Positions 14,074 to 61,755 of a stretch of 64,000 nucleotides of DNA are shown here, one piece after another; positions within the stretch are counted from its first letter, which is position 1, and the number at the start of each line of letters is the position of its first letter. The DNA lies in the NCBI GenBank assembly GCA_017601225.1, contig JAFNIX010000004.1:4507-68506 (forward strand), written 5' to 3'. Under the pieces are notes generated by a model. The model was not told the DNA's origin and made no database searches. It was given only the letters and a program-made list of their open reading frames with translations. The DNA comes from Candidatus Brockarchaeota archaeon. GTDB taxonomy: Archaea > Thermoproteota > EX4484-205 > JAAOZP01. The position numbers and the translations under genes were made by a program.

Positions 14074-15123
14074 TTAATTCGTATTGTTTTTCTCCATCCT
14101 TAGGATTGATGTTATCTGAGAAATATCAAATTTTGGTGTTCCATCAACATAGCAGAGGCCGAAGCATGCGTGAACAGGGCTGTTTTCGCTTTTTATTTTC
14201 CTATGAAACGGGTTATCCCGCCACTCATATATGAATACACCATGTATTCTACCCGAATAATCCCTGTTCACCCTACTTATTAGTTCAGATAATTGCAGAT
14301 AGACTTTCATAAAGTTGGAGGGATCCTGAATTGGAATTATCTTTCTTCCGTCCCGGGTCTCAATATTGGGTGTTCTCCCGTCCTTTTTTGCCTTTACAAT
14401 CTTAAAGCCTATGCCAGCATGAAGCCCAGTCTCGCTAATTATAAGTGGCTTATCGTATTTTTCAAGCTCGTTTAAAAGGCTGCGGAGCATAAACTCAAAC
14501 CTTGCAAGCCTCAAATTAGCTTCCCTCGGACTTGTGAGAAACCTCTTATTGTGTTCAAACGCGTCCAGGGTAAACCAGTCTTTTGCTTCCATAGGATAAC
14601 AGTTAATGGAGTACACGTCTGCTGCCTCAATAATTGGCACAACCCATTCCTTTATTTTGCCTTCGGCATCTAAACCAAATCCCTCCATAGCGTAAGTAAC
14701 AGGCGTATTGAACCCGTGTTCCTGAATAAGTTTTCTGGCTGCAGTAATCAGGTTTGAAATGGCGAATGCTAGTCTTCCCGTAAACCTCCAGTTAGGCGGT
14801 TCACCCTTCGTGTACTCTCTAAGCTCGTTTCCTAGACATATTGCAGTTAAAGGGATGTTCAATTCATGCGTACCAAGGATATGCTCCTGCTTAAGTTCAC
14901 TATGCCAGTCTTTTAGAAGATTTTCAGAGTTTACGTGTATCCCTGCATACAAACTCATATTCAGCTTCTTTATTATTCCTGCGATTCTTTGGGAATGCTC
15001 ATAGTTGTAGGTTCTGACCGCGTTAATACCCATCTTCGCAGCCTCGCTAAAACCCGAGTTCTCAATCCTTCTGACACCGGAAGGGTGGAACCATGCACCG
15101 ATAATCATGTTTCTACACCACAA
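14074..15123 (-). CDS. Clan GH-A (beta/alpha)8 glycoside hydrolase, family unassigned
   Basis: 349 aa. CLGNELRE is a candidate acid/base motif and LIISETGLH a candidate nucleophile motif, spaced as in clan GH-A enzymes. The gene lies 41 nt downstream of module gene A1 on the same strand. The start may instead be the internal ATG at 15108. Confidence 0.5.
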   Translation of the reverse strand: MWCRNMIIGAWFHPSGVRRIENSGFSEAAKMGINAVRTYNYEHSQRIAGIIKKLNMSLYAGIHVNSENLLKDWHSELKQEHILGTHELNIPLTAICLGNELREYTKGEPPNWRFTGRLAFAISNLITAARKLIQEHGFNTPVTYAMEGFGLDAEGKIKEWVVPIIEAADVYSINCYPMEAKDWFTLDAFEHNKRFLTSPREANLRLARFEFMLRSLLNELEKYDKPLIISETGLHAGIGFKIVKAKKDGRTPNIETRDGRKIIPIQDPSNFMKVYLQLSELISRVNRDYSGRIHGVFIYEWRDNPFHRKIKSENSPVHACFGLCYVDGTPKFDISQITSILRMEKNNTN

Positions 15124-15164: not shown

Positions 15165-17042
15165 CTAATATGGAAGTATCCACATGTTTTTCAAAATCAA
15201 ACCGATAGCCACGCTAATCGTTATAATTAAACCAACCCCTAGGGAGATCCCGGCAACTATCGAATTCCTATAGCGTGACCAGAAGTCTCGCCCTATTCTT
15301 TTTTCAACCAGCTTTCCGATAATCATTCCTATCAGTAGGGAAACGGAGTAGGGTAATGGTTGCGCCGCGCCCGCAGACAGAGCTATGACAGGAATGCTTA
15401 GGCGCGTCACCTCGGAGACGGCGAAAACAATAAGGCCAATCACGAAGAATCCGGCTACGAGAAGCGGGTTTAGCAGGCCAGCAGCCCCCCCTGAAGCGAA
15501 CAGGCGGAGCCATCTGGCCTGAATCGGCCAGTAAATATTCGTACCAGGGTAAACGTTAGACGGCATTGGCGCGATGTTCCAGAAGGCAGACACGTAGATG
15601 AAGCCAACCAGCCAGACTATTGGGAAAACCAGGAAGTATGTCTTATACATGGTTTTTGAAGGAGTGTTGCAAAGTTGACCGATCTTCATGAAGTAGCAAA
15701 AATCAGCCCCAAAAGTAGTGATAATAAGTGGACCGAACCATATTCTGGTATCATTAAACCCTGTTGCACCCATGTATGCTAGAAACGCCCCCTCCTTAAG
15801 GTATGGAACATCCTGCTTAAAACCAACGATCCCATAGGATCTCGTGCCCACTAAAGTGTATATGAATGACCATCCGGATGAAAGAGCAAGAAGCAAAAGT
15901 AGAAAAGTAACCGGGAGACCAGGTATAAGGTAGGCGAAAAGAGCAACCGACCCAACGGTTGAGCCGAAGAACAGTGCTAGAAGAAACCATAATGGGTAAT
16001 TGTCAACACCCTTGCCGACCCTTATTCTCAAGAGGCTTTTTAGAGAGTTAATGAAAATTTGAGGATTTCTTAATATTGGGAGGATGCCTGCAGCTATGGC
16101 TAAGCCTATTATTGGGCTTACCCAAAGCTCGAAAAGCGAATGCTGGTATATTGTTGAAAGAGAGGAGCCGGGAGACCAATAGCTGAACAGCCCCCTAAGG
16201 GCCGGCAACGGTGATTCGGAACTGGTGAGAAAACATCCGAAGAAGTAGAAAGCCATTCCGCTTGCAAACAAGGTTAAGACGACGCTTACTGGAAGTATGA
16301 ACCCTGTCGCGATGCTTATTATATCAGTCGCAACGCCGAACGAAGCACCAGGTAGAAACGGCTCTATTCTGCTAGTAAGATCAACCCATGGAATTGGGAT
16401 AGTCGTATAACCCATTACTAGCGCCGGCAAATAGACCAGAAGCCCATAGACGAAACCCAGCGCCGCAGAAAGTGTGAAAATCCTGGTTCTCCTAGGATCA
16501 GTTCTCTCTGAAAGAGTCAGGATTGCATCAGCCCCTACTTGAGCCGTTGGAAACGGCAGATCCTCAACCTCGATGAACATGCTTTTCGCAATGAAAGCCA
16601 TAGACATATCTGCAAGTTTCCAAAGTAGTCCTCCTATGAGAGATATGAGAATAGGCGGAATGAAGCCAGGGGAGAAAAACGTTCTGTAGATAAAGAGATT
16701 TGTCTCTGGAGAAGGAGCCCACCAATCCGGTATGTTCAACCCATAGGCATATGGGCTAGTCCTGAACCAAGTGGCGTATATCCACTGTATGCTTATAACC
16801 TCGAAGCAGATTTGATGCCCCATCATCCATATTAGGAATGCCTCTTGCCTGCTTAACGGGTGTCCAGCCAAAAATCCGAGTTCAACAGCAAACAGGAGCA
16901 GAGTATACTGGATCCCGGAGCTAAGGCTACCGCCGCTGTAAAGCTGGTACCATATTGCCGCCGGCAAAAGAACCACTATGCCGTAGAGTATCACTAAAAA
17001 CGATCTCCAGGTTAACCCTGAGACGCCTTTAGCACTATTCAT
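15165..17042 (-). CDS. Module protein A1: large polytopic membrane protein (OPT-superfamily-like transporter candidate)
   Basis: ORF 15165..17099. It is hydrophobic throughout, with at least 12 predicted TM segments. It carries the motif FIEVEDLPFPTAQVGADAIL. The ATG at 17042 overlaps the stop of the upstream 1520 aa gene (ATGAATAG). It aligns along its full length with the 639 aa ORF at 53171..55090. Confidence 0.6.
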   Translation of the reverse strand: MNSAKGVSGLTWRSFLVILYGIVVLLPAAIWYQLYSGGSLSSGIQYTLLLFAVELGFLAGHPLSRQEAFLIWMMGHQICFEVISIQWIYATWFRTSPYAYGLNIPDWWAPSPETNLFIYRTFFSPGFIPPILISLIGGLLWKLADMSMAFIAKSMFIEVEDLPFPTAQVGADAILTLSERTDPRRTRIFTLSAALGFVYGLLVYLPALVMGYTTIPIPWVDLTSRIEPFLPGASFGVATDIISIATGFILPVSVVLTLFASGMAFYFFGCFLTSSESPLPALRGLFSYWSPGSSLSTIYQHSLFELWVSPIIGLAIAAGILPILRNPQIFINSLKSLLRIRVGKGVDNYPLWFLLALFFGSTVGSVALFAYLIPGLPVTFLLLLLALSSGWSFIYTLVGTRSYGIVGFKQDVPYLKEGAFLAYMGATGFNDTRIWFGPLIITTFGADFCYFMKIGQLCNTPSKTMYKTYFLVFPIVWLVGFIYVSAFWNIAPMPSNVYPGTNIYWPIQARWLRLFASGGAAGLLNPLLVAGFFVIGLIVFAVSEVTRLSIPVIALSAGAAQPLPYSVSLLIGMIIGKLVEKRIGRDFWSRYRNSIVAGISLGVGLIITISVAIGLILKNMWILPY

Positions 17043-20000
17043 GGTTCCCAGCCTCCTTAAATTTCTCCAGCATTTCCCGTGCTTTCTCAATCGCTTCAAG
17101 CTTATCTGCCGCTGGAAGGGTCCTCCAAATGAGTAGTTGTTTGCGAAGACTGTCTACAAACCTGTATCCTGCTTTCTGCCACATGTAAAGCGTGCCGGAT
17201 TTTCTATTTAGACGGAGAGCGTATTTGAAATTGGTTTCGCCAGCATCTTTGCGAATCAGTATTTCGGCCCTCTGAGAGATGCCCATGTCGAAAGGAGGCA
17301 GAGTAGTATCAACGATTATGATCTTCTCAACAGCCCCGTCTTCAACTCTTTCAGACAATGCGAGATTGTCCGTTCTAAAGGTGCCTACCTCCGCCGTTGT
17401 GAAAGCCTTGAAAAATTCAACTAAAAACATTATTATTCCGTCGGTTTCCCCGATCGAGGAGGTGAAGGGTAAAGGTATGTCCCAGACATCGCCCTGAGGC
17501 TTGGTTTTAAGCTTCCAAACCCTCTCCACCGAGGGTGTGACCAGCCTTGAAGCCTTCAGAACAGGATAGATGGAGGACGCTATCGTGGTTAATATCGATA
17601 TTGAGACTGTTAAAATTACGATTGTTGAGGAGAAGTTAGGGTAAAAGTCTTTCGGCATCAATTGAAACATGTAGAGGAGGTTGGTTCCCACAAGCCCTGC
17701 AACGTATCCTAGGACTGCAGCAACAACGGAGTATACTAGCGTTTCCGACAGAAAGAGACCGGCAACATGCAGGGGTGAGAGCCCCAGTGAGCTGAAAATA
17801 CCGATCTCTCTAACCCGTTCATAAACGTTGGCCAGCATCGCGTCCAAGATTGCTAGAGCAGCAATAATAATTGGGAAAACAAGGTGCTCAATCCCCCTGA
17901 GGGAGAACCATGCTTGCTGCTGGAAATTGGCCCTTTGACCCCCGGCGCTCGCGTAAACGACAAACGGCAACCTGTTAGACAGGCTTTGGGCAATTTCGAA
18001 AACCCGGCTTTGATTACGGAATTTAGCGACTATCTGCATTGGGGGATAGCCTAATCTTTCTGCCAGCGAGTATGGAACTATAAGTACTAATTGAGCGGGA
18101 ATATGCTGGATGCCGCCCGCCCATTGGACCCCCCAGTTGATAGGCGTCACCTCGTGCAGATTTAAATCAACCAGGCTGTTAAGAGTGGAAGAATCGAAGA
18201 TTCCGATGATAGTCAGATTGGCTTCACCGACATAAATTGTGTCGCCTATCCTCCAGCCGCAGGTGTCCGCAGCTTCCCTCGGTATTATGGCCGTGTAAGA
18301 ACTTAATAGCTGGGAGCAATTCGGAAGAGTAATGCCCTGCTCAAAGATAGGGTCTTCCGGCACAACTGCCAGCAAAGCCGAGAAGACGTATTGTGTTCTA
18401 GGCAGGTTATCCGTGATCCTAGTTACCCTTATCTTCGTCCCCGGAACCTGGCCTCCCAAGACCGACACGTAGCCGCTGGAAGTATAGATCCAGCTTCTTG
18501 GGCATATGACAGCTTCGTCCCCGATCTCCACTTTAAGAAAAGCCTCCAGATAAGATGGCAGGTACCTGAATTCACTTATCAGGATTCCGTCATAATAGGT
18601 TTTCCCGGGTTTCGGAATGGTTCTGACTATTGATATCAAGTATATGGATGTTAATGAAATAAGGGAGAACACTATCAATGTGATTGTTACAAGTGTAAGA
18701 GCAGTCCGCAGCCTTCTCTTCCGCATATTAGATACGCCCATTGAGAAAGCGATTAGAATCGCGCCAAACCGGCTTATCTCGGCGAAATGTTTGCCGATTA
18801 CCTCTTCTCTAAACGCCCTTATAAAGCCGGATATTCTGCCCCACAGTATTCCTACAATGGGGGTGACGAAAACTAGGATCGCTATGCCAACCAGCATTAT
18901 ATAGATGTTTGTTGCTAAGTGAAAACCAGGATGAAACCAGTAGAGTAGAAATGTGAAAAGCGCGAAGACTCCGCATGCATACAATATTCTCCGCATGCCG
19001 CTTCTCGGTGAAAACACGAGTTCGACAAGGAGTATTGAAAATGGAACTAAAAGTATGAAAAAGAAGAGGGTTGATGAAATTATTTCGAAAATTAGGCCCC
19101 TTGTAAACGTGTAAGCGTTTATCTCGCTCTGCCAAGCAGCGTAAGTAGCGTAGACCATGCGAGAATAGTTAAACCCGGCTTCTGCCGAGAAACATCTTAA
19201 AGCCTCGCTTAACAGATTGCCCGTATTTTTTGAGAACTCTAAAGCAGGAGCACTCGCAGCCAAGTAGCTTGAAGCCAAATGAAGCCTATACTTGTTCAAA
19301 AGATGAAAATCATTAACAAGCCTTAGAGGCGTGGCTAGGATAATTAATGTCTCACCCTGTTTCACCGAGAATCCTCTTCCTTCAAGAGTTTCTTCAGTGA
19401 TACTTTTTAAAACTCCTTGGGGGGAGGGAATTCCCGGACTGTAGATAATAACCTCAATAGGCACGTCTTCAGGTGCAAATATCATTGTTATGTCCTCGCC
19501 CTCAATGAAGCTGTCGCGAACATAGCCGTAGGACGTAGGTGGAGTATGACCGCGTGAATCCAGAATAGAAATGCTCCCGAGCATATTCACGGGTGGAATA
19601 AGGTTGAACAAGACTATTGAGCCACAGGGGAAGACTGGAAAATAGCGAGGTGCATCCGGGGTCCCGATACGCCCGCTGTCAACCTGGAATGAAATAGGGT
19701 ATACGTCGGATCTTTGCTGCCACAGCTCAGGAGCATATATAACGTTTCCATTCTTGTTGAAGACGAATGCCTCAACCATGACTTTTGGAACCGCGACCTC
19801 AGCAACACCCACGCCCAGCTGCTGCGCACCCGTATAGGTTGTCTCCGAAGGCAGCCCGTGAACCATAAAAACACCGTTCTCATCCGTTTTACACAAAGAG
19901 TAGAAATGTGGAGTATACCCGCTTTCAGTATAAGACAGGCGGACTGAAACCAGCGCGTGAGGCACTCCCTCAAACCATCCCTTCGCATAATCGTATGTAA

Positions 20001-21597
20001 CAATTTTCCCAGTTAAAGTAACGAAGCCGCCTGCGTTCGGCTGTAAAGCGTACCTCGTTGGTCCAATACCCCTGCTTCCGAAGTCAGGACCGTTTATCAG
20101 GCTTGACGCTAAGGCCGCTGCAAACATAACCTGTTTCTTAGTGTTTTCGAACCTTCTCTGAGAGCCGAGACTATTCTCATAGATGTCTGAAGGCGTGGAG
20201 CAGAAGGCTCTGAAAGAATTAGCGGTAGCTACTGTTATTCCAACCCCGCCCGCTAAAACATACGGTTCATGGTCGAAAGCCAGGTTAGTCGGCAAGTATA
20301 CTCTCCATTCTCTTACGCGTAAACCGTCTTCAACATTTATATCGAGGCCCAGATTCTGCAGAATGTTCTTAACCTCAGACTGCGACCCGAATAATCTATC
20401 ACGTAGCCAAGTATACCTTAGGAGAGAGGCCTCGAAGTAATAGTTGTACCCGCAGAAGAATAACCCTAGATCGCTCACGTCGGAAGCCAGGTCGAAGTTT
20501 ACCCATATGCTGATCTTATTGCCTATTTCCTCGAAGTGCTGCTCTACAAACTCTCTGGAGCCCTTTAACCCTCCGTAGTGAGAACCTATAGCGAGAAACC
20601 ATATGGTTCTCTCAGGAGGATTATCCTTAAACCAGGAAGCCAGCTCCATGATCATCGCAATGCCTATAGCCTCATCTGCTCCAGGAGCCACTCCAACTAT
20701 GTATGATTGCGAATCATAGTATGCACTTAAAATCACAATCTCTTCTCTCCTTCCGGGTATTACACCTAGAATATTCCAAGCCGGCTTTTCCTCCCAGGAA
20801 GCATTCAGCATAATTCTTACTTTAACCTCGCCTATTGTCTGAAGAGCAATCAGATTCTCCGCATCTCTTCTTGAAACCACGAGCCTAGGAATATTTAACG
20901 GGACGCCTAGGTAGTTGACTCCCCCTCTGAAAGCTAATCGTGGAGCATCCGGAAGCCTACCGTTTAAAGAACTTTGAACGTTATTGTAGATTTCCGGCTC
21001 AATAAATAGTACGGCTTTAGCGCCAAACATCACTGTGCGAATCCAGTTCCCGCTGTTTTCATAGTCCACAAGCACTATCTTATCATTAAGGTTCTTTCCT
21101 TCAAGCTCCGACAGGGATGCTTTCCCAACGTAGACTAGCCTCCCCTCAATACCCTCGGGAGGAGTCATACCCGGATTTAGACCCATCGGGTACATTGTTA
21201 AAACATTGTCAAGGGTAAACTGGATTGGAGATAATACTTGAACCCTTGACTCATGAACTACTGGGACGAGGACCGTGAAGTTTTCAAAATAACCGTAAGG
21301 ACCTGGTTTAAGACCATTTTTCACGAAGTTTTCATAGATGTATTTCGCTGCAGCTTCATAGCCAGGGTAGCCGGGGGTCCTGCATCTAAGGCTAGACAGA
21401 TACTTAACGTGCTCGCGAATCGCATCTGTGTTTATGATGTTTGCGATCTCGCTATTTTTAAAGGGCTGCAGCCCGTCTGCCTCAACTTGATAGGCAATGT
21501 TTAAAACGATTGTTGAACATAAGAGGAATATAATAGACAGGGGAATAAGTCTTCTCCTCAATACTGTTCGAAGCAGGACTCTTCCCCCTAGAGACAT
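17035..21597 (-). CDS. Module protein C1: signal-anchor + PA/M28-like (transferrin-receptor/GCPII-like) ectodomain + CarboxypepD_reg-like segment + 3 TM + MacB/FtsX-type permease + novel cytoplasmic tail
   Basis: 1520 aa. M28-like blocks: WNILGVIPG..VILSAYYDS..APGADEAIG..GSHYGGLKGSREF..VNFDL. PA-like block: GRLVYVGKA..DKIVLVDYENSG..GAKAVLFIE. FtsX TM1 block: NMRKRRLRTALTLVTITLIV. FtsX domain block: NVYERVREIGIFSSLGLSPLHVAGLFLSETLVY. There is no Walker A motif anywhere in the protein. Confidence 0.7.
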   Translation of the reverse strand: MSLGGRVLLRTVLRRRLIPLSIIFLLCSTIVLNIAYQVEADGLQPFKNSEIANIINTDAIREHVKYLSSLRCRTPGYPGYEAAAKYIYENFVKNGLKPGPYGYFENFTVLVPVVHESRVQVLSPIQFTLDNVLTMYPMGLNPGMTPPEGIEGRLVYVGKASLSELEGKNLNDKIVLVDYENSGNWIRTVMFGAKAVLFIEPEIYNNVQSSLNGRLPDAPRLAFRGGVNYLGVPLNIPRLVVSRRDAENLIALQTIGEVKVRIMLNASWEEKPAWNILGVIPGRREEIVILSAYYDSQSYIVGVAPGADEAIGIAMIMELASWFKDNPPERTIWFLAIGSHYGGLKGSREFVEQHFEEIGNKISIWVNFDLASDVSDLGLFFCGYNYYFEASLLRYTWLRDRLFGSQSEVKNILQNLGLDINVEDGLRVREWRVYLPTNLAFDHEPYVLAGGVGITVATANSFRAFCSTPSDIYENSLGSQRRFENTKKQVMFAAALASSLINGPDFGSRGIGPTRYALQPNAGGFVTLTGKIVTYDYAKGWFEGVPHALVSVRLSYTESGYTPHFYSLCKTDENGVFMVHGLPSETTYTGAQQLGVGVAEVAVPKVMVEAFVFNKNGNVIYAPELWQQRSDVYPISFQVDSGRIGTPDAPRYFPVFPCGSIVLFNLIPPVNMLGSISILDSRGHTPPTSYGYVRDSFIEGEDITMIFAPEDVPIEVIIYSPGIPSPQGVLKSITEETLEGRGFSVKQGETLIILATPLRLVNDFHLLNKYRLHLASSYLAASAPALEFSKNTGNLLSEALRCFSAEAGFNYSRMVYATYAAWQSEINAYTFTRGLIFEIISSTLFFFILLVPFSILLVELVFSPRSGMRRILYACGVFALFTFLLYWFHPGFHLATNIYIMLVGIAILVFVTPIVGILWGRISGFIRAFREEVIGKHFAEISRFGAILIAFSMGVSNMRKRRLRTALTLVTITLIVFSLISLTSIYLISIVRTIPKPGKTYYDGILISEFRYLPSYLEAFLKVEIGDEAVICPRSWIYTSSGYVSVLGGQVPGTKIRVTRITDNLPRTQYVFSALLAVVPEDPIFEQGITLPNCSQLLSSYTAIIPREAADTCGWRIGDTIYVGEANLTIIGIFDSSTLNSLVDLNLHEVTPINWGVQWAGGIQHIPAQLVLIVPYSLAERLGYPPMQIVAKFRNQSRVFEIAQSLSNRLPFVVYASAGGQRANFQQQAWFSLRGIEHLVFPIIIAALAILDAMLANVYERVREIGIFSSLGLSPLHVAGLFLSETLVYSVVAAVLGYVAGLVGTNLLYMFQLMPKDFYPNFSSTIVILTVSISILTTIASSIYPVLKASRLVTPSVERVWKLKTKPQGDVWDIPLPFTSSIGETDGIIMFLVEFFKAFTTAEVGTFRTDNLALSERVEDGAVEKIIIVDTTLPPFDMGISQRAEILIRKDAGETNFKYALRLNRKSGTLYMWQKAGYRFVDSLRKQLLIWRTLPAADKLEAIEKAREMLEKFKEAGNHE

Positions 21598-21625
21598 TCC
21601 CTAATCACCTTCATGCTCAACCCTG

Positions 21626-21640
21626 TTTAAAAATGTAAAT
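21626..21640 (-). promoter_or_regulatory. Shared 15-nt promoter motif ATTTACATTTTTAAA (minus strand) upstream of C1
   Basis: The plus strand reads TTTAAAAATGTAAAT. On the minus strand the TATA-like TTTTTAAA lies 29-36 nt upstream of the C1 ATG (21597). The identical 15-mer recurs at 23788-23802. Confidence 0.45.
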
Positions 21641-21642
21641 AG

Positions 21643-21649
21643 AAAAAAA
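21643..21649 (-). terminator. T7 tract downstream of B1 (possible archaeal oligo-T terminator)
   Basis: AAAAAAA on the plus strand gives TTTTTTT on the coding strand, 9 nt after the B1 stop codon. It lies immediately before the promoter-like motif of C1. Confidence 0.3.
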
Positions 21650-21657
21650 GGAAGTGA

Positions 21658-23742
21658 TCAACCTGGAACAGCAGGAGTCCATTCTATCCCTGCTTGTGCA
21701 ACCGGCAGGAATATGTCGGTAACTATTGACACTATGAATGCACCTAGGAATATTCCTATCGCTAGCGGGACGCCTTGTTCCTCATAGAGTTTTGAGCCGC
21801 CTATTCTAAACGTTAGAAACTTCAAAACCCATGCTACGAGAAGATAGCCCCAAAGCCAGTGTGCGGGCTGACATAAGCCTATGACAAGACCCACCGGATT
21901 CAATGGAAACCTGGCGAATGCAACCCTAGCCCAAAGAAGAACTCCGGCGAGGAAGAAGCCCGCAGCCCAGTTTGCCAGCTCAAGACCTAGCAGGTCCTTG
22001 TTCCAGTTAAACCAGGAACAGCCCTGAGCTTGGTTGAAAGCAGCGTTAAAAATGGCTTCTTGACTCCACCATGCAGGACTGACCCACTGGCTGTACAGGG
22101 TGCCACCGTATCCGAAGCCCTTGTCGATCCCAATCATGTATGTAAAGACCAGCCAAAGCGGGAGACATATGAGGACGGCGAGGACCATGGCCACAATGGT
22201 TGAAATCGCCATAGCCCTATTATTGGTTTTAGTTAGAGTCGCCAATTTGAAGGCTTCGAGCTGAGCGCTCTGAGGCGTGCCTGCTCCACCCCAGTACCAA
22301 GTGTAATGCCCAGTCACCACGTAACCCATGTTCCAAGCCGTGTAGGCACCTGGCCCGTATGCGGCTTGAGACGCTGCCGAGGCTTGGGGCCCGACAAGCG
22401 AGTATAGCCCTGCCTGAGACAATAGCGTAGCTAAAACCTCCTGGGACTCCCAAGGTATGTCTCCCTTCGCTATGCTTTCACCCCTGATTCTTGATGTCGC
22501 CACATACTGGAGACACGTATATACTACGATTATGCCGGCCGCCCAGACTGGAATATAGACAACCACCATAAGCACAATGAGCAGCACTGTTGAAATTATG
22601 AAGGCAAGCCACAGAGTTCTATATGAGAAAGGCTCGTTAGACTCATCAAGCACCTTCTTGCCAAACGCGTTCTTAAGCGTAGAAACAATGTATTTCCTCG
22701 CGTAGACAAGAAGCCAGAGGCCTAAGCCAATCATTGCACCCCATCCGATCATCCCACCGGATATGGGAGCTATCGCACATGACGCCATGTTGTGCCACGC
22801 GCCTCCGGAGCTTCCCCAAGGTGCTTGCAGCGTTGCGTACCCAGCCCAAGCGGAAACCGCCGGAATAATATCGGCAAATATAAACCAGGCGACGACTGCA
22901 GTGAATAGAACGTCAAGTGGCGCGAGATACCATAAGCTTAGCTGAGACGGGGATACGCTGAAGAACCAGCTTGAATTCGGCAGCGCGACCTCCAGTGCTT
23001 CGATGTGGTAGGTCTGCCACAGGTTCCATCCTCTTCCGGGTGCAAGAGCATCTATAAGGTTACCAAGCATCAGTAAAAATCCCACCAGCAGACCTATCAG
23101 AATCTTTTTAACGCGGGGTTTCTGGGTTACGCCCATGCCTAGGTTTATCAGCTCATTAGTAATGTTCAAGTATGGGAACGGTAGCTTCTCAATGTCTATC
23201 CACAGTTTCCGAAGTATCATCCCCATCGAAAGCATGAAAACCAATAGAACTATAGTGAAGATCATCCAGAATCCTAACGCCGGAGCCCATGCTGCCCAGG
23301 GAACAGAAGTTCCCCCGGTGAAAGCAGCTAAAGCAGCCTCCATGTCTTTTACTCCGAAGAGCGGGCTCATCTCTAATGCTCCAGGTATTGTGGACACCCA
23401 GTATCCCATCCACCACCATTGTTTTTCCCAGGCCGTGTTGAAAATCGATATTGAAAACGGTACTGCCACAGACCATGCGAAGCCAAGACTTACCGTCACC
23501 ATGGCGAAAACGATGGCGTATTCGTCTGCCCTGAGCCTCAGGGAACTGAGAAAGTAGCCAAGTATTGCCAGCACAAAAAGTACTAGGAATGCTCCCGCGT
23601 TCATGCCCCACAGTGTCAGATTAACGTTTGTCCAGTCTATTGATAGCTGTATCAGCATCATCACTATGGAGATGACTAGGCCGACTATGAATCCTCTAGA
23701 CTTTAAAAATTCGCTGAGGAGGAATTCTTTTTCCTCACTCAT
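21658..23742 (-). CDS. Module protein B1: large polytopic membrane protein, distant relative of A1
   Basis: 694 aa and hydrophobic throughout. It carries the motif LWIDIEKLPFPYLNITNEL. It aligns along its full length with the 660 aa ORF at 59773..61755, for example at LAPLDVLFTAVVAWFIF versus LAPLDILSSIVIWLFIF. Confidence 0.6.
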   Translation of the reverse strand: MSEEKEFLLSEFLKSRGFIVGLVISIVMMLIQLSIDWTNVNLTLWGMNAGAFLVLFVLAILGYFLSSLRLRADEYAIVFAMVTVSLGFAWSVAVPFSISIFNTAWEKQWWWMGYWVSTIPGALEMSPLFGVKDMEAALAAFTGGTSVPWAAWAPALGFWMIFTIVLLVFMLSMGMILRKLWIDIEKLPFPYLNITNELINLGMGVTQKPRVKKILIGLLVGFLLMLGNLIDALAPGRGWNLWQTYHIEALEVALPNSSWFFSVSPSQLSLWYLAPLDVLFTAVVAWFIFADIIPAVSAWAGYATLQAPWGSSGGAWHNMASCAIAPISGGMIGWGAMIGLGLWLLVYARKYIVSTLKNAFGKKVLDESNEPFSYRTLWLAFIISTVLLIVLMVVVYIPVWAAGIIVVYTCLQYVATSRIRGESIAKGDIPWESQEVLATLLSQAGLYSLVGPQASAASQAAYGPGAYTAWNMGYVVTGHYTWYWGGAGTPQSAQLEAFKLATLTKTNNRAMAISTIVAMVLAVLICLPLWLVFTYMIGIDKGFGYGGTLYSQWVSPAWWSQEAIFNAAFNQAQGCSWFNWNKDLLGLELANWAAGFFLAGVLLWARVAFARFPLNPVGLVIGLCQPAHWLWGYLLVAWVLKFLTFRIGGSKLYEEQGVPLAIGIFLGAFIVSIVTDIFLPVAQAGIEWTPAVPG

Positions 23743-23787
23743 GTCTTATCACGGTTTTTATATGCGAAAAACTTCTATTTAAGTTTT

Positions 23788-23849: not shown

Positions 23850-25496
23850 CTACTTTTTTCTAAGGAGAAGAAGTACTGCTATTAAAAACTCTAGGATCGA
23901 AGTTGCTACTAAACCGACCATGCCTAGGACAAAAGAAGCAGTTAGAAGCAGAGCCATGTAGTAAACTAGAATCGGAATCATTGCAACTATGTAGCCGAGT
24001 ATCCAAGGGAGAATATAGTAGTAGAATTTTAGATACAGGTTTCCAGATGGGATTGTTTGCCCAAATGTTCTTGAGAGAAGAACTATTTCAAATATTATTG
24101 ATGCCACGACGGAGAACGTGAAAACACCTCCGAAAAGCGCGAACACAGAGACGAAGCCCGGTGCTCTCAGCATGGTTATCACCAAGAGTACGAGGAGTGA
24201 AGCCAAATACACGGTTAACGATAGGATTGTTTTAGCAAGAATCAGCGTCCTTCTTCCCAGAGGCAGGCTTCCGACGTAAGAATAGGCTATGCTCTCGGTG
24301 TTTAAAAGCGCAGGGGGAAGTATCAACACCATAAGTAAAGAAATCATGAACAGTGGCAGGAACATGGGGGGCAGAAACTCGGCTGAAGCACCGCCCGCAT
24401 CAGGGTGGAAGGAGGTGAAGCTGAAAATTATGATTTGTATAACCGGCATTGCAAGTATGCTGAAGTAGGAAGGAGACCTTGAGGCAATCCTGAGATCCTT
24501 CTTAAGAACCCCCAGCCACGGTGGCCCAGGGTTTATGGAAATTTCCTTAACCTCCACCCTGCTGCCTGCGGCAACGCTTCCAAAGCCTATTCCAACCACC
24601 CTCTTAACAAGCCACTTGAAGGAATATGCTGCCAGGGCTAAGTAGAGGAGTGAGGAGCCCACGGATAAGGCCGCAATCCTAGGGTCATAGGTTTTGAAGA
24701 AGGTGGCTAATGAAGCCAAGAAACCCATTGAAAATGGGTATAGCAATGTAAGCAGGTATGAGAGACTTTGAGTAAGGGTTTTCATGAGGCTAACCATTTG
24801 CATCGCAAAGCTCGTAACCGCGTACATGAGGAACATTGGAATAATCCAGACCAGCATGTAGAAGAGCCTCAGGAGTGTTTTCAGTGATGACCTTCCGCCA
24901 CCCTTAACCACTTTAGAATAGAAAGAGAAGGATAGGAATACGGCTATTGCTAATGCGAAAACTTCTGTGATTACAACGCTCAAAAGGACAGTTAAAGCAC
25001 CCGGGATAGAGCCGTATGAGATCCCGTACGCCATTGGAATTATTAAGATTGCTGCTACTAATGGAACGTCGAAGATTCGTATGAAACACATAAGGAGAAT
25101 TTTTGAAACATCCTTGCTTGAAACCGGGAGTGGAGTCAGAAACTCTGAAACCCTGGAGGAGACGAAGGATGTCGCAACCTGCAGCCCCATGAAAACCATC
25201 ATGAACAGGACAATGCTGAGCATGGATGAAACGCCGCACGCAGCAGCCAGCTCCCTATCCATCTCGAGCAGAACGCCTGAGAAGAAGGTAAAACCCCCGA
25301 ATACGCCGATGAAAATAGCGAATATAACTTTGTTAAGCATAAAATTCCACTCCGCGCTCCTGACGAGTTGAACGATGTTTTTCTCAGCGTCACCTGCTTG
25401 AGGCAGGGTTCCGCCCACGCGGAGTGAGAAGAACGATTGGAAAACAATCTCCCTGTAAACCTTTTTCGACAGCCACCAGAGTTCAGAAACGTTCAT
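23850..25496 (-). CDS. Polytopic membrane protein, probable ABC-2-type permease partner of the upstream ATPase
   Basis: 548 aa with about 12 hydrophobic segments. It starts 5 nt after the stop of the ABC ATPase gene on the same strand. I recognise no catalytic motifs. Confidence 0.5.
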   Translation of the reverse strand: MNVSELWWLSKKVYREIVFQSFFSLRVGGTLPQAGDAEKNIVQLVRSAEWNFMLNKVIFAIFIGVFGGFTFFSGVLLEMDRELAAACGVSSMLSIVLFMMVFMGLQVATSFVSSRVSEFLTPLPVSSKDVSKILLMCFIRIFDVPLVAAILIIPMAYGISYGSIPGALTVLLSVVITEVFALAIAVFLSFSFYSKVVKGGGRSSLKTLLRLFYMLVWIIPMFLMYAVTSFAMQMVSLMKTLTQSLSYLLTLLYPFSMGFLASLATFFKTYDPRIAALSVGSSLLYLALAAYSFKWLVKRVVGIGFGSVAAGSRVEVKEISINPGPPWLGVLKKDLRIASRSPSYFSILAMPVIQIIIFSFTSFHPDAGGASAEFLPPMFLPLFMISLLMVLILPPALLNTESIAYSYVGSLPLGRRTLILAKTILSLTVYLASLLVLLVITMLRAPGFVSVFALFGGVFTFSVVASIIFEIVLLSRTFGQTIPSGNLYLKFYYYILPWILGYIVAMIPILVYYMALLLTASFVLGMVGLVATSILEFLIAVLLLLRKK

Positions 25497-25501: not shown

Positions 25502-26290
25502 CTATGCCTCCAGGGCTTTAACTATCTCCTGTACCCCAGCCTCCTGCTCAGTTACTTTCAAGAATATTTCCTCTAAGGAGCCTTCCGCGCTCTTAACCAG
25601 TTTTCGAAGACCGTCGACTGTTCCCTCGCCAACCATTCTCCCCCTGTTTATTATACCTACTCTCATGCAGAGTCTTTCAGCAACCTCCATTATGTGCGTT
25701 GAAAAAATCACTGCACCCCCCTTGCTCACGTGGAAGGTCAACAGCTCCTTGAGTATTTTGGATGAGAACGCGTCAAGCCCCATCAGCGGCTCGTCGAGAA
25801 TCAGGAGCTGTGGCTCGTGCAGTAGGGCTGCCACTACCGCGACCTTCTGCTTATTCCCTTTAGAGAGGGCTGCGATAGGCGTGTCGAAATACTCTCTCAG
25901 TTGGAAAGCTGAAAACAGTTTCTCAAGCCGGGGGTGAACCATGTCCGCTTTTAGACGCCTAATAGAAGCAACAAATTCCAAGAATTCTCTGGGGGTTAGT
26001 GAATCCATGAGGATGACCTCTTCTGGAACATATCCCATCATGCTTTTAACAGCAACCTCGTCTGAAAGCGGCCTGCCGAAGATTTCAACCCTCCCGGAAG
26101 CAGGCTTTAAAAGCCCGGTTAACACTTTCAAAGTGCTGGTTTTACCAGCCCCGTTCGGCCCGAGAAGCCCGTATATTTCACCAGGTTTAACGGTGAAGGA
26201 AACACCGTCGACGGCGACGAAAGAACCATATTTAACAACGAGTCCCTCGACGAAAACAGGGGGAGCATGCTCATCATAATCGACTAACAT
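25502..26290 (-). CDS. ABC transporter ATP-binding protein (ABC-2/DrrA-CcmA type)
   Basis: 262 aa. Motifs present: Walker A GPNGAGKTS, signature LSKGNKQKV and Walker B LLILDEP. Confidence 0.85.
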   Translation of the reverse strand: MLVDYDEHAPPVFVEGLVVKYGSFVAVDGVSFTVKPGEIYGLLGPNGAGKTSTLKVLTGLLKPASGRVEIFGRPLSDEVAVKSMMGYVPEEVILMDSLTPREFLEFVASIRRLKADMVHPRLEKLFSAFQLREYFDTPIAALSKGNKQKVAVVAALLHEPQLLILDEPLMGLDAFSSKILKELLTFHVSKGGAVIFSTHIMEVAERLCMRVGIINRGRMVGEGTVDGLRKLVKSAEGSLEEIFLKVTEQEAGVQEIVKALEA

Positions 26291-26407
26291 GGAACCCAGC
26301 TCCCAAGCACCGGTTTTGTACGCAGCTCTTTTTATTTAAGTTTTAATCTTTTCAACCTTAAAATGGTAAAAGCCTAATAGTGAGCAAAAAGCATTCCCAC
26401 GGAGAAC

Positions 26408-38648: not shown

Positions 38649-38655
38649 ATTCAGA

Positions 38656-53170: not shown

Positions 53171-55090
53171 CTAGAATGGTTTAGCCGTTATCGCTCTCCC
53201 CATTATGGTGATGGCGACGGCGGCTGCTACTGCGAGCGCGATCCCGCAGAAAGTTCCCGCGATTATCACTCCTCGCCGCACAACCCACTTATCCTTACCC
53301 ATTCTTCTCTCAAGCCATTTTCCTATCAGGGCTCCGATCAATGGTGGAAGCGTGTAAGCAGGAATGTTTTGAAAGCCGTATAGGAAGCCTATTGGGGAGA
53401 AGTATTGTGTCGGGAAACGGGAGGAGGCGACGACCATTATGAAGGACAGGACGCTTGAGATGGCTATCACGTCAACCTTGAAAATCTCGATTGACCTGGA
53501 GACCCATAGGGAGAAGTAGAGGGCTGAAATAGGCCAGGAGTAGCTGGCATAGGGGTAGAAGGCAGACGGTATTGGCGTCATAGCCCAGAATATTGAAACA
53601 TACAGTAGAGATAGGAGAATGGCTATTAGGAAGAATATGAGGTATGCCTTGTAGTAGTCGAGAGGCCTGACCTTCAGCAGCTTAGCCACGTAGACCCTGT
53701 GCGTAATTATTCCAGCGCTACTCGTCACATGCGTTGGAACCACCCATGGGATCACGTCCCCAGGCCTTGTGAAAGAGACGAAGAACGCCTCTCTAATGTA
53801 TGGAATAGTGACAGATAACCCGGTTTCAGCCGTCGCCCTGGCTGTCAATATGCCTTGAATAAACGGTACTATCGTCCAGGTCACCACCCAGACGAACCAT
53901 AGTTCTGGGGCGAGGGAGACTGAAACAAGCAAACCTCCTATAGACCCGGCGGTGATTAAAGCAATTATCCAGCTGAAAGGCAAGTATGATGTTTTAAGCT
54001 GCTCTGCTGAAAGATGCCTCAGAGACAGGATTGCCCTCGCAATGTTTTTGGCGCCGACTGCAAGTATCCCGAGAGCAATCCCGAGTGTTAAACCTACCTG
54101 TGGGCTTGCCCACAGGTCGTAGATTGCTCTCTGCCACCACCATTGGATTGACGCTCCATAGGTCCATTCTCTCTGCCACATGCTGAAGTAGGGGTGGTCT
54201 ATCCTGAGTGCTATAGAGTTTCCGAAAACCCAGACTGCTACAGACCCTATGAACATCCAGACTGCAGCGTTAAACGGGATTAGCCAGCCCACCATGTATT
54301 GGGCAATATCTGTTCCGACCGCGAAAACGGCTCCCGGCAGGATTCTTTCAATCCCCGTTGTCAAGTCCACCCAAGGATACGGTATGACGGTTATGGCCCT
54401 GCCCAAGAAAATCGAGGTTATGTTTGGAATCCCGTAGATGGCGAACTCATAGATGAAGCTTATCACAGCGGCGAACGAGAAGTACATTATTTTCTCAGGT
54501 GTTCTTTCAGTAAGGGTTGAGATTGCTTGGTAGTCTATGGGTGCAACTGGGAACGGGAGCTTCTCTATCTCTATGTAAAGCATGTTCGTTATGAAGGAAA
54601 CACCGTAGTCTATCATCAGCACGCAAACGTTAACAGCTAGAGAGATCGATATCGGGATTATCCAGTCTGGGGAGAGGAAAGTCCTGTGAAGCGGACCGTA
54701 GCTTCCCAGCTCAGGAACATACCATGTTGGAAGCTTTTCAGCAATACCGTAGAGGATGGTGTATGGGGCAGACCTATAGTAATACCTTATGAGGAAATCT
54801 CCGAACATTCCTCCGCCGACGAACCATAGGGCTATGGCTTGAAGCATGAAGTATATTATGTAAGCTTCTTGGGACGTTATGTATCTCTTGACGAGCCTCC
54901 CGGCCTCTGTGAAAAGAAGTATTGTAACGAAAACCGGGATGAACCTTTCGGTCCCGCCTAAAGAGCCGACGGCCCATCCTAAATAGATTATCGCTGGCAC
55001 GATTACCACAAGCCCAAATAATACTGCGGAGACCGATACGATCGTGAGCCCAGGGATGAAGGCTTCTTTTTCACGTGCAGCCTCTTCCAT
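53171..55090 (-). CDS. Module protein A2: large polytopic membrane protein, paralog of A1
   Basis: 639 aa. The motif YIEIEKLPFPVAPIDYQAISTLTERT aligns with FIEVEDLPFPTAQVGADAILTLSERT of A1. PYPWVDLTTGIERILPGAVFAVGTDI aligns with PIPWVDLTSRIEPFLPGASFGVATDI. The start overlaps the stop of C2 (TAATG). Confidence 0.6.
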   Translation of the reverse strand: MEEAAREKEAFIPGLTIVSVSAVLFGLVVIVPAIIYLGWAVGSLGGTERFIPVFVTILLFTEAGRLVKRYITSQEAYIIYFMLQAIALWFVGGGMFGDFLIRYYYRSAPYTILYGIAEKLPTWYVPELGSYGPLHRTFLSPDWIIPISISLAVNVCVLMIDYGVSFITNMLYIEIEKLPFPVAPIDYQAISTLTERTPEKIMYFSFAAVISFIYEFAIYGIPNITSIFLGRAITVIPYPWVDLTTGIERILPGAVFAVGTDIAQYMVGWLIPFNAAVWMFIGSVAVWVFGNSIALRIDHPYFSMWQREWTYGASIQWWWQRAIYDLWASPQVGLTLGIALGILAVGAKNIARAILSLRHLSAEQLKTSYLPFSWIIALITAGSIGGLLVSVSLAPELWFVWVVTWTIVPFIQGILTARATAETGLSVTIPYIREAFFVSFTRPGDVIPWVVPTHVTSSAGIITHRVYVAKLLKVRPLDYYKAYLIFFLIAILLSLLYVSIFWAMTPIPSAFYPYASYSWPISALYFSLWVSRSIEIFKVDVIAISSVLSFIMVVASSRFPTQYFSPIGFLYGFQNIPAYTLPPLIGALIGKWLERRMGKDKWVVRRGVIIAGTFCGIALAVAAAVAITIMGRAITAKPF

Positions 55091-59772: not shown

Positions 59773-61755
59773 CTAATAGCCTGTCGGTCCTACGGATATT
59801 CCTCCAGTTGCAGCGTTCACTCCCATGATTATCGTAGCCATGAGAGTGACACCAACCATGAAGCCTATGGCTACCGGTACTCCAACCTCTTCGTAAGCCT
59901 TTGCCCCGAATACTTTAAGCGTTATTAGTTTGAGAATCCATGCGACTCCAGCGTTTATCAGCCACATTCCGGAGTAGAAGAATAGCGCGTATGGGCTGAA
60001 GAAGAACCATGCGAACCTAGCTCTCAGGAAGAAGAGGATCCCGACGACAACTATAGCCAGCGGAAACATCCACCAGTGGAAGTCCGCAGGTGGTGCTGAA
60101 TCAGCCACCACCCACGGTACCTGGAACCCAGTGATATTCGCACCGCTGCCGAGCCCCCAGGCTTTCAACTGGCCTATTCCAGTGCCGTAGATTATGTAGA
60201 CGGCAACAGGAACGCCTATCAGCACCGTTATCAGGATTCCTAGGATATGCGACTTGAGAATATCTGTCTCCTTCACCTTAGCCGGCTCAACCATAGTATA
60301 GGTTGAGGTGTAGGCCCAAGCAGTGTGCGTGTTCTGGTGAAGAACTCCACCCATGTTTGCAGATATGCTGACGCCAGCCATCGTGGCCCATGCGGATTGA
60401 GTTTTCGCAGCCGCCCCGCTTGCTGGGAACAGGCCTATTCCAGTACCTACTCCCCAAGCCAAGAATCTAGCTGGAACAGCATCTCCTCCCGCCACCCATG
60501 TTCCCGTTGCCCCGCAGACAGCAACCATACCAGTCGTGTACAGGAACCACACTATGAAGCCGACCAGCAGCGGGAGAATGTTGGCTCCGAATATTACCCA
60601 TAAGATTAGCCAGAGAAGCCACGTGGCCGCGAAGCCGTACCATACGAGCGAGTTTGGAAGCTCACCGGGGGCAAACTCCTTCTTCTTAACGCTTTCAGCA
60701 TAGGTCTTATAGCCGAAGACTATTGTCCAGATTCCTATCGCTAACGGTGCCCAATAGTAGCTGAAGTTTAGCCATGGGAAGGGACCTGTGCCAGCCGGGT
60801 TTGTGTTAGGTGTTATTACTCCAGTGTTGACGAGGATCAGCGGGAACAAGATTTGGAATATGAATAGCCAGATGACTATTGAGGAAAGAATGTCCAAGGG
60901 AGCAAGATACATTATCGCGGCATCTGCAGGTATGAACATCCACCAGGATTGTATCGTGTTTTGAGATATTGAGCTCATAAGGTCGGCGAACCACTGCTGG
61001 TAGAACTGGCCGAAGGCGAAGAACACAGTCGTGAACTTAATAATGTAGTTTAAAGCTCCCAGTACCCCTATTGCGCACCCCAGTAGTATTCCCGCTATGA
61101 ACGGGAGCTTCTTCATGTACTGTGTGAAGGTTCCTTTCTGATGCTGTGAAAGCATTTCATTAATCGGTATCATCATGGGGAACGGGAGCCTTTCTTTTTT
61201 AATCAGCTGCAGCCTGATTAATGCTGCCTGGAAAACCATCATTAGGCACCAAATAATTATCATTATCATCCAGAACGCTAGGTATGGGAGCAACCTGCCC
61301 AGTGGTACGGCTGCTCCTCCAGTCCAAGCGGGGGCGATCAGATCATAGTCGCCCGGGGTCCACAGCGGTGGGTAATACTTTAGCAGGGCCTCTACATTCG
61401 GGTTAGTCTTAACCAGGTATGTTCCTGCGAATATGAATTGTAGGAAGGCGCCGATGACGAACGGGCTGTCTGCCGTTATGAACGCTATTGTAGTGATTAC
61501 TGCGATCTCCTGGACTGTCAGAGCCTTCATGAACAGGCTTACCAGAACGAGTATGAAAACGAGTCCGTACGGTGGGTATATTGCTGACCCGACTCTGCCT
61601 GCGAAAACAGGTTCCAAGCTTATTCCTAGACCCCACCAGGTAGCTATGTTTGCGAAGAGCCCTATTATACCGAAGACTATCGCAAGGATTATTGCTCTAA
61701 TGGTAAAACCTGTTTTTAACTCTTCTATGACTGAGACAGTCTTTGTCTCACTCAA
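59773..61755 (-). CDS. Module protein B2: large polytopic membrane protein, paralog of B1
   Basis: 660 aa with a TTG start. It carries the motif LIKKERLPFPMMIPINEML. The C-terminal block KVFGAKAYEEVGVPVAIGFMVG aligns with RIGGSKLYEEQGVPLAIGIFLG of B1. Confidence 0.6.
   Translation of the reverse strand: MSETKTVSVIEELKTGFTIRAIILAIVFGIIGLFANIATWWGLGISLEPVFAGRVGSAIYPPYGLVFILVLVSLFMKALTVQEIAVITTIAFITADSPFVIGAFLQFIFAGTYLVKTNPNVEALLKYYPPLWTPGDYDLIAPAWTGGAAVPLGRLLPYLAFWMIMIIIWCLMMVFQAALIRLQLIKKERLPFPMMIPINEMLSQHQKGTFTQYMKKLPFIAGILLGCAIGVLGALNYIIKFTTVFFAFGQFYQQWFADLMSSISQNTIQSWWMFIPADAAIMYLAPLDILSSIVIWLFIFQILFPLILVNTGVITPNTNPAGTGPFPWLNFSYYWAPLAIGIWTIVFGYKTYAESVKKKEFAPGELPNSLVWYGFAATWLLWLILWVIFGANILPLLVGFIVWFLYTTGMVAVCGATGTWVAGGDAVPARFLAWGVGTGIGLFPASGAAAKTQSAWATMAGVSISANMGGVLHQNTHTAWAYTSTYTMVEPAKVKETDILKSHILGILITVLIGVPVAVYIIYGTGIGQLKAWGLGSGANITGFQVPWVVADSAPPADFHWWMFPLAIVVVGILFFLRARFAWFFFSPYALFFYSGMWLINAGVAWILKLITLKVFGAKAYEEVGVPVAIGFMVGVTLMATIIMGVNAATGGISVGPTGY

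Follow-up and report, generated by a model that had tools for sequence, protein, structure and literature searches.

A gene module that combines an M28-fold/FtsX fusion protein with OPT-like permeases and probably handles peptides at the surface of many archaea and bacteria

Introduction

The 64,000-nucleotide stretch of Candidatus Brockarchaeota DNA analysed here (contig JAFNIX010000004.1, positions 4,507 to 68,506 of the forward strand; hereafter the window) carries, in two copies, a set of three adjoining membrane-protein genes that we call B, C and A in their order of transcription. A first-pass annotation, made by a model from the DNA letters, described the three genes as an uncharacterised module and suggested a machine for the capture and uptake of peptides, glycopeptides or glycans. 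What kind of machine would join a large surface domain and a MacB/FtsX-type permease to two further polytopic membrane proteins, what would drive it, and what would it move? Our analysis indicates that the module is a widespread archaeal and bacterial system, probably an ATP-driven device that handles peptides at the cell surface. Within that description we tentatively favour, at something less than an even chance, an ATP-powered capture device that feeds peptides to OPT-like permeases for import.

Results

Two copies of a three-gene core

C1, A1 and B1 are intact, co-oriented open reading frames (ORFs) on the minus strand, with exactly the boundaries that the first-pass annotation had given them (Table 1), and its claim that C1 and A1 are translationally coupled also stands. 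The end of C1 and the start of A1 overlap by 8 nt (ATGAATAG); read on the minus strand in GGGAACCATGAATAGTGCT, C1 ends in CAT GAA TAG and A1 begins with ATG AAT AGT, and a GGAGG lies 9 nt upstream of the A1 ATG, which is the layout expected for translational coupling. The mechanically called ORF of A1 (15165-17099) reaches a TTG at 17099; the start that gives 625 amino acids (aa) is also used in public gene calls on a near-identical contig of a metagenome-assembled genome (MAG). That contig, of a public Thermoproteota MAG (GCA_038850585.1), encodes a 99%-identical protein, and its gene calls are identical.

The second copy that the annotation had placed at 53171-61755 is there as B2-C2-A2, in the gene order of copy 1. 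A1 and A2 are 29% identical (E 2e-68), C1 and C2 27% identical over their full length (E 7e-161), and B1 and B2 25% identical (E 4e-30). The two copies are ancient paralogues and not the outcome of a recent duplication.

C combines a receptor-like ectodomain with an FtsX/MacB-type permease

C1 runs from an N-terminal transmembrane (TM) anchor through a PA/M28-fold ectodomain, beta-sandwich domains and a helical stalk to three extra TM helices, an FtsX/MacB module and a cytoplasmic C-terminal domain. Its earlier description as a pseudo-peptidase fused to a MacB/FtsX permease is borne out by Pfam, by profile and structure searches and by the loss of catalytic residues. Among the profile searches that the annotation had proposed, Pfam returned Peptidase_M28 (E 4.8e-13) and FtsX (E 1.5e-13) for C1, and DUF families for B1; MacB_PCD was weak with C1 alone (E 0.042, under the cutoff), with PF12704 precomputed on about half of the C homologues. 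CarboxypepD_reg gave no Pfam match in C1, though the model has beta-sandwich domains after the M28 domain.

A profile of 13 C family members matches PA-domain M28 aminopeptidases (2ek8, YwaD), transferrin receptor and Nicalin at its N-terminus, and at positions 902-1301 it matches MacB (5lil residues 270-655, E 2e-16), LolF, LolC/E and YtrF. We built two AlphaFold models of C1, one of the ectodomain and one of the membrane half, each on a 46-sequence alignment. In the ectodomain model (residues 36-830; predicted local distance difference test (pLDDT) 88.4, predicted template modelling score (pTM) 0.90) the PA/M28 head is followed by beta-sandwich domains, with strands at fragment residues 490-717, and by the helical stalk, with helices at 721-794. 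Its Foldseek matches, at 1e-24 to 1e-20, include 2ek8 (2.7e-24), BSAP (6hc6, TMt 0.64), GCPII and transferrin receptor. The membrane-half model (residues 820-1520; pLDDT 82.6) places the extra helices at 2-42, 48-75 and 79-115, followed by FtsX TM1, a periplasmic core domain of alpha/beta fold between TM1 and TM2, and TM2-4. Here Foldseek found MacB (5gko, 1.3e-11), LolC/E (LolC 7e-11), HrtB, YtrF and FtsX, with FtsEX-EnvC and the isolated MacB periplasmic region (5c59) also among the matches. We conclude that C is a true FtsX/MacB-fold protein. The coupling helix between TM2 and TM3 (VYERxREI) is nearly invariant across 82 C family members, in which E1260 is present 81 times, R1261 78 times and E1264 81 times, and we infer that it docks an ATPase.

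The cytoplasmic C-terminal domain, modelled as beta-alpha-beta4-alpha2, sets the family apart. A phmmer search with its 166 residues among 1.84 billion representatives gave 1253 matches at E<=1e-3, and in all of the best 150 listed of these the domain lies at the C-terminal end of the protein. Full-length proteins that carry it have about 1400-1600 residues; shorter ones look like gene fragments. We take the domain to be the signature of the C family.

Alignment of C1 with active M28 enzymes shows AHxDS replaced by AYYDS and the EE motif by SH. We counted the residues of the M28 site over the same 82 members. The first His ligand position is Tyr or Phe in 72, the catalytic general-base Glu (the first E of EE; Ser339 in C1) is Gly, Ala or Ser in 81, the ligand Glu position is His in 79, and the last His ligand position is mostly Gly, Ala or Ser, with His in 7. 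Both His ligands are lost in about 90% of members while the two ligand Asp positions are largely retained, so the set of five co-catalytic zinc ligands of M28 (His, Asp, Glu, Asp, His) is incomplete in C. On these alignments it is very unlikely that C is an active M28 peptidase with canonical aminopeptidase activity. Because D295, E/D308, H340, D369, D442 and E444 are conserved, an acidic/His pocket is kept; the site reads as remodelled, not decayed, and the pocket could plausibly bind a ligand or a metal.

A and B as OPT-like permeases

A1 aligns with the Pfam OPT profile almost from end to end (residues 10-610 on profile positions 2-619 of 623), with a score of 25.1 bits at a cutoff of 25.8. 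A2 gave no Pfam OPT match, and 5 of 14 A family members match OPT, the best at E 8e-12; A appears to be a borderline member of the OPT family. B1 matches DUF6785 (E 1.2e-36) and DUF6784 (E 2.2e-14). The first-pass annotation had treated A and B as two large transporter-like proteins. Transporter-like they are, by OPT, DUF6785 and DUF6784, but they are not two kinds of transporter: the A-family and B-family profiles align over 591 columns with hhalign (probability 99.85%, E 1e-30) and have an E(K/D)LPFP motif in common. By these comparisons A and B are full-length homologues within the OPT superfamily, with B a divergent paralogue of A. Single-sequence and profile searches of the PDB gave no relative of either, and a literature search for OPT-family cryo-EM structures returned unrelated papers only.

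Distribution and synteny

We scanned one genome per species with a 6-sequence C alignment as query and found relatives of C at 559 loci or more, in Bathyarchaeia, Thermoproteales, Hodarchaeota, Heimdallarchaeota, Armatimonadota, Omnitrophota, Latescibacterota, Gemmatimonadota, Planctomycetota and others. Further relatives, in Alkanophagales, WOR-3, Lentisphaerota and the cultured Fundidesulfovibrio putealis (Desulfovibrionaceae), came from protein searches, and the C family amounts to about 1,250 clusters at 50% identity. At 82 of these C-encoding loci, to which labels such as L037 refer, ORFs were called and classified with hidden Markov models (HMMs) built for this analysis. A lies directly downstream of C in 52 of the 66 loci with at least 2.5 kb of downstream sequence, and B directly upstream of C in 26 of 60. 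Where 9 kb are available on both sides (n=32), A or B is present in 29 loci and both in 13. Precomputed Pfam labels on public gene calls give the same pattern, and the synteny that the annotation had proposed to look for in other genomes is thus found. Many genomes, like this one, hold at least two diverged copies (L010 with L050; L063 with L077). In three complete bacterial chromosomes (L018, L035, L078) no gene resembling A or B lies within 10 kb of the C homologue; in some lineages, then, either the genes lie apart or C works without OPT-like partners.

Accessory genes in other lineages

Outside the window lineage the module has recurrent companions. One is a minimal FtsX protein of about 200-240 aa, which has four TM helices and a conserved coupling helix but hardly any ectodomain; it is accompanied by one or two ABC (ATP-binding cassette) ATPases and is adjacent to the module in Asgard, Armatimonadota and Fundidesulfovibrio loci. 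The gene order is minimal FtsX - ATPase - C - B - A in F. putealis, whose locus lies at 467.7-492.6 kb of AUBQ01000004.1, C - A - cl2 - PqqD - minimal FtsX - ATPase in Armatimonadota, ATPase - x - B - C - A in Latescibacterota, and X120 - minimal FtsX - ATPase - ATPase - (X799, reverse strand) - B - C - A in Asgard archaea. All ABC ATPases that adjoin C in other phyla score best against LolD, MacB and FtsE models, such a cognate ATPase is present with C relatives of five phyla, and these ATPases also resemble those of darobactin and bacteriocin exporters.

In the Armatimonadota-type loci minimal FtsX is directly preceded by a PqqD-family gene without exception (10 of 10). Its product, of about 140 aa with a conserved N-terminal extension, matches Pfam PqqD at E ~1e-13 and has lasso-peptide and PQQ chaperones as its best NCBIfam matches; orthologues adjoin A in one locus of Thermoproteota (L037) and one extended locus of Asgard archaea (L084). 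The cytoplasmic protein cl2, of about 300 aa, co-occurs with the PqqD-like gene and minimal FtsX in Armatimonadota and Asgard loci and gave no Pfam or NCBIfam match. The three-gene module of the first-pass annotation is therefore real as a core and incomplete as a system: relatives add minimal FtsX, one or more LolD-type ATPases, PqqD and cl2, and as these genes recur beside the module the functional unit is larger than three genes.

Some lineages carry further genes of their own. In Asgard loci (L084 10001-12440; L002 2085-4904; L021, L026, L030) two different LolD-type ATPases stand in tandem, which implies a heterodimeric ATPase. X120, a 120-aa Cys-rich protein (CPC...CPN..C) encoded head-to-tail with minimal FtsX in the Asgard operon, was ruled out as a PqqD protein, being Cys-rich and giving no Pfam match. 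X799 (about 800 aa) is without a family match, and a conserved 67-aa Asgard ORF was ruled out as a precursor peptide, being a two-TM hairpin. In all seven Omnitrophota loci (L027, L033, L036, L040, L054, L072, L079) the gene directly upstream of C, which runs into the start of C, encodes a secreted tetratricopeptide-repeat (TPR) protein of about 178 aa, apparently an accessory subunit specific to this lineage.

Surroundings of the two copies

An ORF search of the window found no gene for minimal FtsX, PqqD or cl2. The sole FtsX-compatible ATPase in it, of LolD type (40631-41317), has an FtsX partner of its own, the two forming a classical MacB-type pair behind a PadR regulator. With no free ATPase and none of the three accessory genes, both copies are bare B-C-A cores, and the genes for the subunits that energise them must lie in another part of the genome. 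The region of that pair (38112-43995, plus strand) encodes, in order, the PadR regulator, a DrrA-type ABC ATPase, an ABC-2 permease, the LolD-type ATPase, the FtsX/MacB_PCD permease (41319-42596) and a 468-aa rhomboid-domain protein, whose gene overlaps the end of the permease gene; a rhomboid protease is apparently co-transcribed with a MacB-type pump, which is unusual.

The ATPase and 12TM_1 permease genes directly upstream of B1 were considered as the missing ATPase and rejected, the ATPase being of DrrA/GldA type and the pair a separate ABC-2 system; 12TM_1 is unrelated to minimal FtsX (hhalign probability 0.1%). The pair, which looks like an independent ABC-2 exporter, also occurs in L070, a 90%-identical relative. 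Between it and B1 lies a 107-nt spacer with a TATA-like element, AAACTTAAATA, a putative archaeal promoter of copy 1; an identical element at 26333-26343 precedes the pair. We assign this role from position, because the motif type occurs in the window at chance level (2 observed, 1.8 expected). A scan for sigma-70 promoters and terminators is uninformative for an archaeon.

Downstream of A1, X349 is a possible, lineage-restricted fourth gene of copy 1. It gave no Pfam, NCBIfam or PDB match, is conserved behind A only in the close relatives L003, L064, L070 and L083, and was rejected as an equivalent of the GH43-like 348-aa gene beside copy 2, to which it has no similarity. Directly upstream of B2 (61934-63978) lie a MoaA-like radical S-adenosylmethionine (SAM) gene on the plus strand and a second radical SAM/Fer4_12 gene on the minus strand. 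PqqD proteins usually partner radical SAM enzymes; the placement of these genes, in a window where no PqqD gene was found, may be meaningful or a coincidence.

The window also holds URO-D-like paralogues (of the MtaA/CmuA-type methyltransferase or decarboxylase family) at 26408-27385, 49110-50189 and 9237-10700, and this family recurs near C in the Bathyarchaeia loci L004, L008, L064 and L070. Of two aldehyde:ferredoxin oxidoreductase paralogues (27398-31222 and 34243-36018), one adjoins an uncommon DeoC-aldolase/4Fe-4S ferredoxin fusion and a second DeoC-like gene.

Table 1. Features of the two module copies, of their immediate surroundings and of the cl2 gene in four of the loci that carry one. 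Positions are those of the window, except for cl2, where they belong to the locus named.
Feature	Position	Strand	Description
B1	21658..23742	-	694 aa polytopic membrane protein, DUF6785 + DUF6784
C1	17035..21597	-	1520 aa fusion protein
C1, PA-domain M28 aminopeptidase fold	20158..21480	-	extracytoplasmic; residues ~40-480; remodelled, non-canonical metal site
C1, beta-sandwich domains, then three-helix stalk back to membrane	19108..20157	-	residues ~481-830; AlphaFold model
C1, three extra TM helices	18820..19107	-	residues ~831-926; model; near-invariant HPG motif (H889, P890)
C1, FtsX/MacB-type permease module	17542..18714	-	residues ~962-1352; TM1, periplasmic core domain, TM2-4, coupling helix VYERxREI
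C1, family-specific cytoplasmic alpha/beta C-terminal domain	17038..17535	-	residues 1355-1520; ends in LRKQLLIWR motif
A1	15165..17042	-	625 aa from ATG at 17042; polytopic OPT-like permease
C1 stop/A1 start overlap ATGAATAG	17035..17042	-	8 nt; read from sequence
B2	59773..61755	-	660 aa, TTG start; B1 paralogue; DUF6785 E 8e-14
C2	55090..59607	-	1505 aa; C1 paralogue; M28 + FtsX domains, same architecture
A2	53171..55090	-	639 aa; A1 paralogue; start overlaps C2 stop (TAATG)
TATA/B recognition element (BRE)-like element AAACTTAAATA	23776..23786	-	~35 nt upstream of B1 ATG; read from sequence
12TM_1 (PF09847) permease	23850-25496	-	548 aa; directly upstream of B1
DrrA/GldA-type ABC ATPase	25502-26290	-	262 aa; upstream of B1
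X349	14074..15123	-	soluble, 349 aa; 41 nt downstream of A1, same strand
cl2 in L007	16602-17504		
cl2 in L012	16589-17566		
cl2 in L030	18-956		
cl2 in L084	7488-8474		

Discussion

Type VII systems such as MacB, LolCDE and FtsEX turn ATP hydrolysis into movement of an extracytoplasmic domain. We suggest that B-C-A could be the membrane core of an ABC mechanotransmission system of type VII (MacB/FtsX-type), to which OPT-superfamily permeases are physically coupled. The FtsX module of C would dock a dimer of LolD-type ATPases, probably together with minimal FtsX, both encoded elsewhere in the genome, and C would pair with itself or with minimal FtsX. ATP hydrolysis would then move the extracytoplasmic arm of C, about 800 residues long, whose head has an aminopeptidase fold that seems to have lost catalysis and kept its acidic/His pocket. 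Peptides from the environment or the cell surface would be caught by this head, probably at their free N-termini, and handed to A, made in a fixed ratio with C, and to its paralogue B, and the permeases would carry them inward. In many lineages a PqqD-family peptide-binding protein from the same locus might then receive them in the cytoplasm. Our data show which domains and folds the proteins have, that catalytic residues are lost, that A and B are homologous, and which genes are syntenic with the module or accessory to it; that the proteins form a physical complex, that their cargo is peptides and that it moves inward is what we infer. The parts of the proposal draw on different observations. 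We regard C as a functional type VII ABC permease because its coupling helix is conserved and LolD-type ATPases recur beside it, and an FtsX-type permease with such a helix needs a LolD/MacB-type ATPase, which the module in the window does not encode. That the arm of C and the OPT-like permease work together is suggested by their tight translational coupling, and the duplication of the permease as B points the same way. Peptides are the favoured cargo because three independent components, the OPT carriers, the aminopeptidase fold and the PqqD domain, have peptide-related ancestry; the PqqD/RRE family (RRE, RiPP recognition element; RiPP, ribosomally synthesised and post-translationally modified peptide) consists of peptide-binding chaperones.

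Several observations weigh against peptide import. Neither copy in the window has a cognate ATPase, minimal FtsX or PqqD gene near it, and most neighbouring genes of the two copies have to do with sugars (GH2, GH4, GH43-like, BNR, GFO/IDH/MocA) and are not peptidases. Many bacterial loci lack B, which means that A, B and C do not form a fixed complex everywhere. A1 falls 0.7 bits short of the Pfam OPT threshold, and PDB searches found no solved OPT-family structure for comparison. To our knowledge, the characterised type VII systems (MacB, LolCDE, FtsEX, HrtBA, BceAB) extrude, extract or activate, and none imports. The role for which PqqD-type domains are best known, the presentation of ribosomal precursor peptides to modifying enzymes, agrees with export no less than with import. 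Capture and uptake, proposed in the first-pass annotation for peptides, glycopeptides or glycans, stays plausible, with the balance now shifted to peptides by OPT, the aminopeptidase fold and PqqD.

The main rival is peptide export or release, which we regard as unlikely. A PqqD-like chaperone in the cytoplasm would bind a ribosomally made or processed peptide, the OPT-like proteins would move it out, and the FtsX-driven ectodomain would hold, mature or expel it. All characterised FtsX/MacB systems that we know of act outward or in the extracytoplasmic space, MacB expelling peptide toxins and LolCDE extracting lipoproteins, and the MacB/LolC fold of C matches that polarity. The PqqD-family protein conserved beside minimal FtsX and its ATPase, with its lasso-peptide and PQQ relatives, and the exporter-like features of the ATPases fit the same picture. 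Yet neither a conserved gene for a precursor peptide nor one for a modifying enzyme (radical SAM, cyclodehydratase, lasso protease) recurs across the 82 loci, the conserved 67-aa Asgard ORF being a membrane protein and no precursor; the window lineage retains B-C-A without a nearby PqqD gene; and characterised OPT transporters (TC 2.A.67) are importers. We find it distinctly improbable that C instead serves envelope maintenance in the manner of FtsEX, its ectodomain regulating or scaffolding surface enzymes or components of the surface layer (S-layer) or wall while A and B recycle fragments or anchor the complex. FtsX family members commonly regulate extracytoplasmic hydrolases, FtsEX-EnvC is among the structural matches, Nicalin and transferrin receptor, which the C profile matches, are dead M28-fold proteins that act as receptors or scaffolds, and the Omnitrophota TPR protein would suit such a role. 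Against this, the system spans S-layer archaea, diderm bacteria and wall-variable phyla, so that no single envelope polymer can be its target; the loci show no conserved gene for a hydrolase or a coiled-coil activator; and the presence of two or more diverged copies in many genomes suits substrate diversification better than housekeeping.

Like envelope maintenance, the capture of glycans or glycopeptides is less well supported than export, and we rate its chance as small. Here the ectodomain would bind carbohydrate-decorated substrates, and A and B would import oligosaccharides or glycopeptides. What suggests it is solely the sugar-enzyme neighbourhood in this lineage, where GH2, GH4, GH43-like, BNR sialidase-like, GFO/IDH/MocA and xylose-isomerase-like TIM-barrel genes occur both here and in related Bathyarchaeia loci, and the beta-sandwich domains after the M28 domain would be in keeping with it. 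That context is not conserved in other phyla, Pfam finds no carbohydrate-binding module in C1, and OPT, the M28 fold and PqqD all indicate peptides. That the three proteins are merely neighbours with no joint function is already disfavoured and, in our estimate, very improbable indeed: B is missing in many loci and the order varies (C-B-A in Fundidesulfovibrio, B-A-C in L050), but C and A adjoin in 52 of 66 loci, in archaea and bacteria alike, both copies have the stop/start overlap, and the whole trio is duplicated.

A bolder version of peptide import, which we consider doubtful, is that a type VII ABC mechanotransducer has been harnessed for import as a new class of uptake machine, in which a dead-aminopeptidase arm, moved by ATP, captures peptides, possibly long or surface-bound ones, and threads them into dedicated OPT-type channels. 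Were this true, organisms ranging from Asgard and Bathyarchaeia archaea to six or more bacterial phyla would share a conserved hybrid of primary and secondary transporter. Genomes with C come mainly from uncultured, sediment and hot-spring lineages (Bathyarchaeia, Asgard, Armatimonadota, Latescibacterota, Omnitrophota), which are thought to recycle detrital protein and polymers, and current annotation of the module genes offers just "FtsX-like permease", "M28 peptidase" and DUFs. A demonstration that an FtsX mechanotransducer works with OPT-type permeases would extend the known roles of type VII ABC systems and give prokaryotic OPT homologues and DUF6785/DUF6784 their first functional context. 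The question is directly testable, because the cultured F. putealis carries a compact version with minimal FtsX, ATPase, C, B and A.

How does the module compare with known systems? The first-pass annotation could not map it onto any described one, and neither could we: profile searches gave no Pfam or NCBIfam family beyond DUFs, and we found no paper (in literature on DUF6785, DUF6784, FtsX with M28 and OPT, and PqqD with FtsX), PDB entry or curated family for a B-C-A system. Like OPT transporters (PF03169, TC 2.A.67), A is polytopic, about 620-690 aa long and alignable from end to end. It differs in that A1 scores just under the cutoff and B is divergent enough to be filed as DUF6785/DUF6784; moreover, known OPT proteins are lone proton-coupled carriers, whereas A and B would sit beside an ABC-type machine. 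With BSAP/YwaD, 2ek8, GCPII, transferrin receptor, Nicalin and nicastrin C has the PA-plus-M28 fold in common, and like transferrin receptor and Nicalin it has lost catalytic residues and would be placed in a membrane complex. Unlike these receptors, its ectodomain is fused to a permease and not to a single-pass anchor, and it keeps a conserved, remodelled pocket that could still bind a metal or an amino group. The accessory protein of about 140 aa matches Pfam PqqD as PqqD/RRE chaperones do, but has a conserved N-terminal extension, lacks an accompanying radical SAM or other RiPP enzyme in its loci, and has no counterpart in the window.

The closest relatives are the type VII systems (MacB, LolCDE, FtsEX, HrtBA, YtrEF, BceAB). 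With them C has in common the four-helix FtsX fold, an extracytoplasmic domain between TM1 and TM2 and the coupling helix, and the loci of many lineages place next to it the genes for a LolD-type ATPase and another FtsX-type subunit. In contrast to them, C carries a PA/M28-fold ectodomain of about 800 aa and three extra TM helices ahead of its FtsX module and a unique 166-aa cytoplasmic domain after it; its gene is translationally coupled to that of an OPT-like permease, and its partner FtsX is almost without an ectodomain. We know of no characterised type VII member with the additional ectodomain and TM helices, the C-terminal domain or the OPT coupling. In other words, the parts come from superfamilies that are known (type VII ABC permeases, OPT, the M28 fold, PqqD), while we found no curated family, solved structure or paper with the combination, the fusion architecture or the C-terminal domain, and there is a realistic chance that the module represents a new mode of transport.

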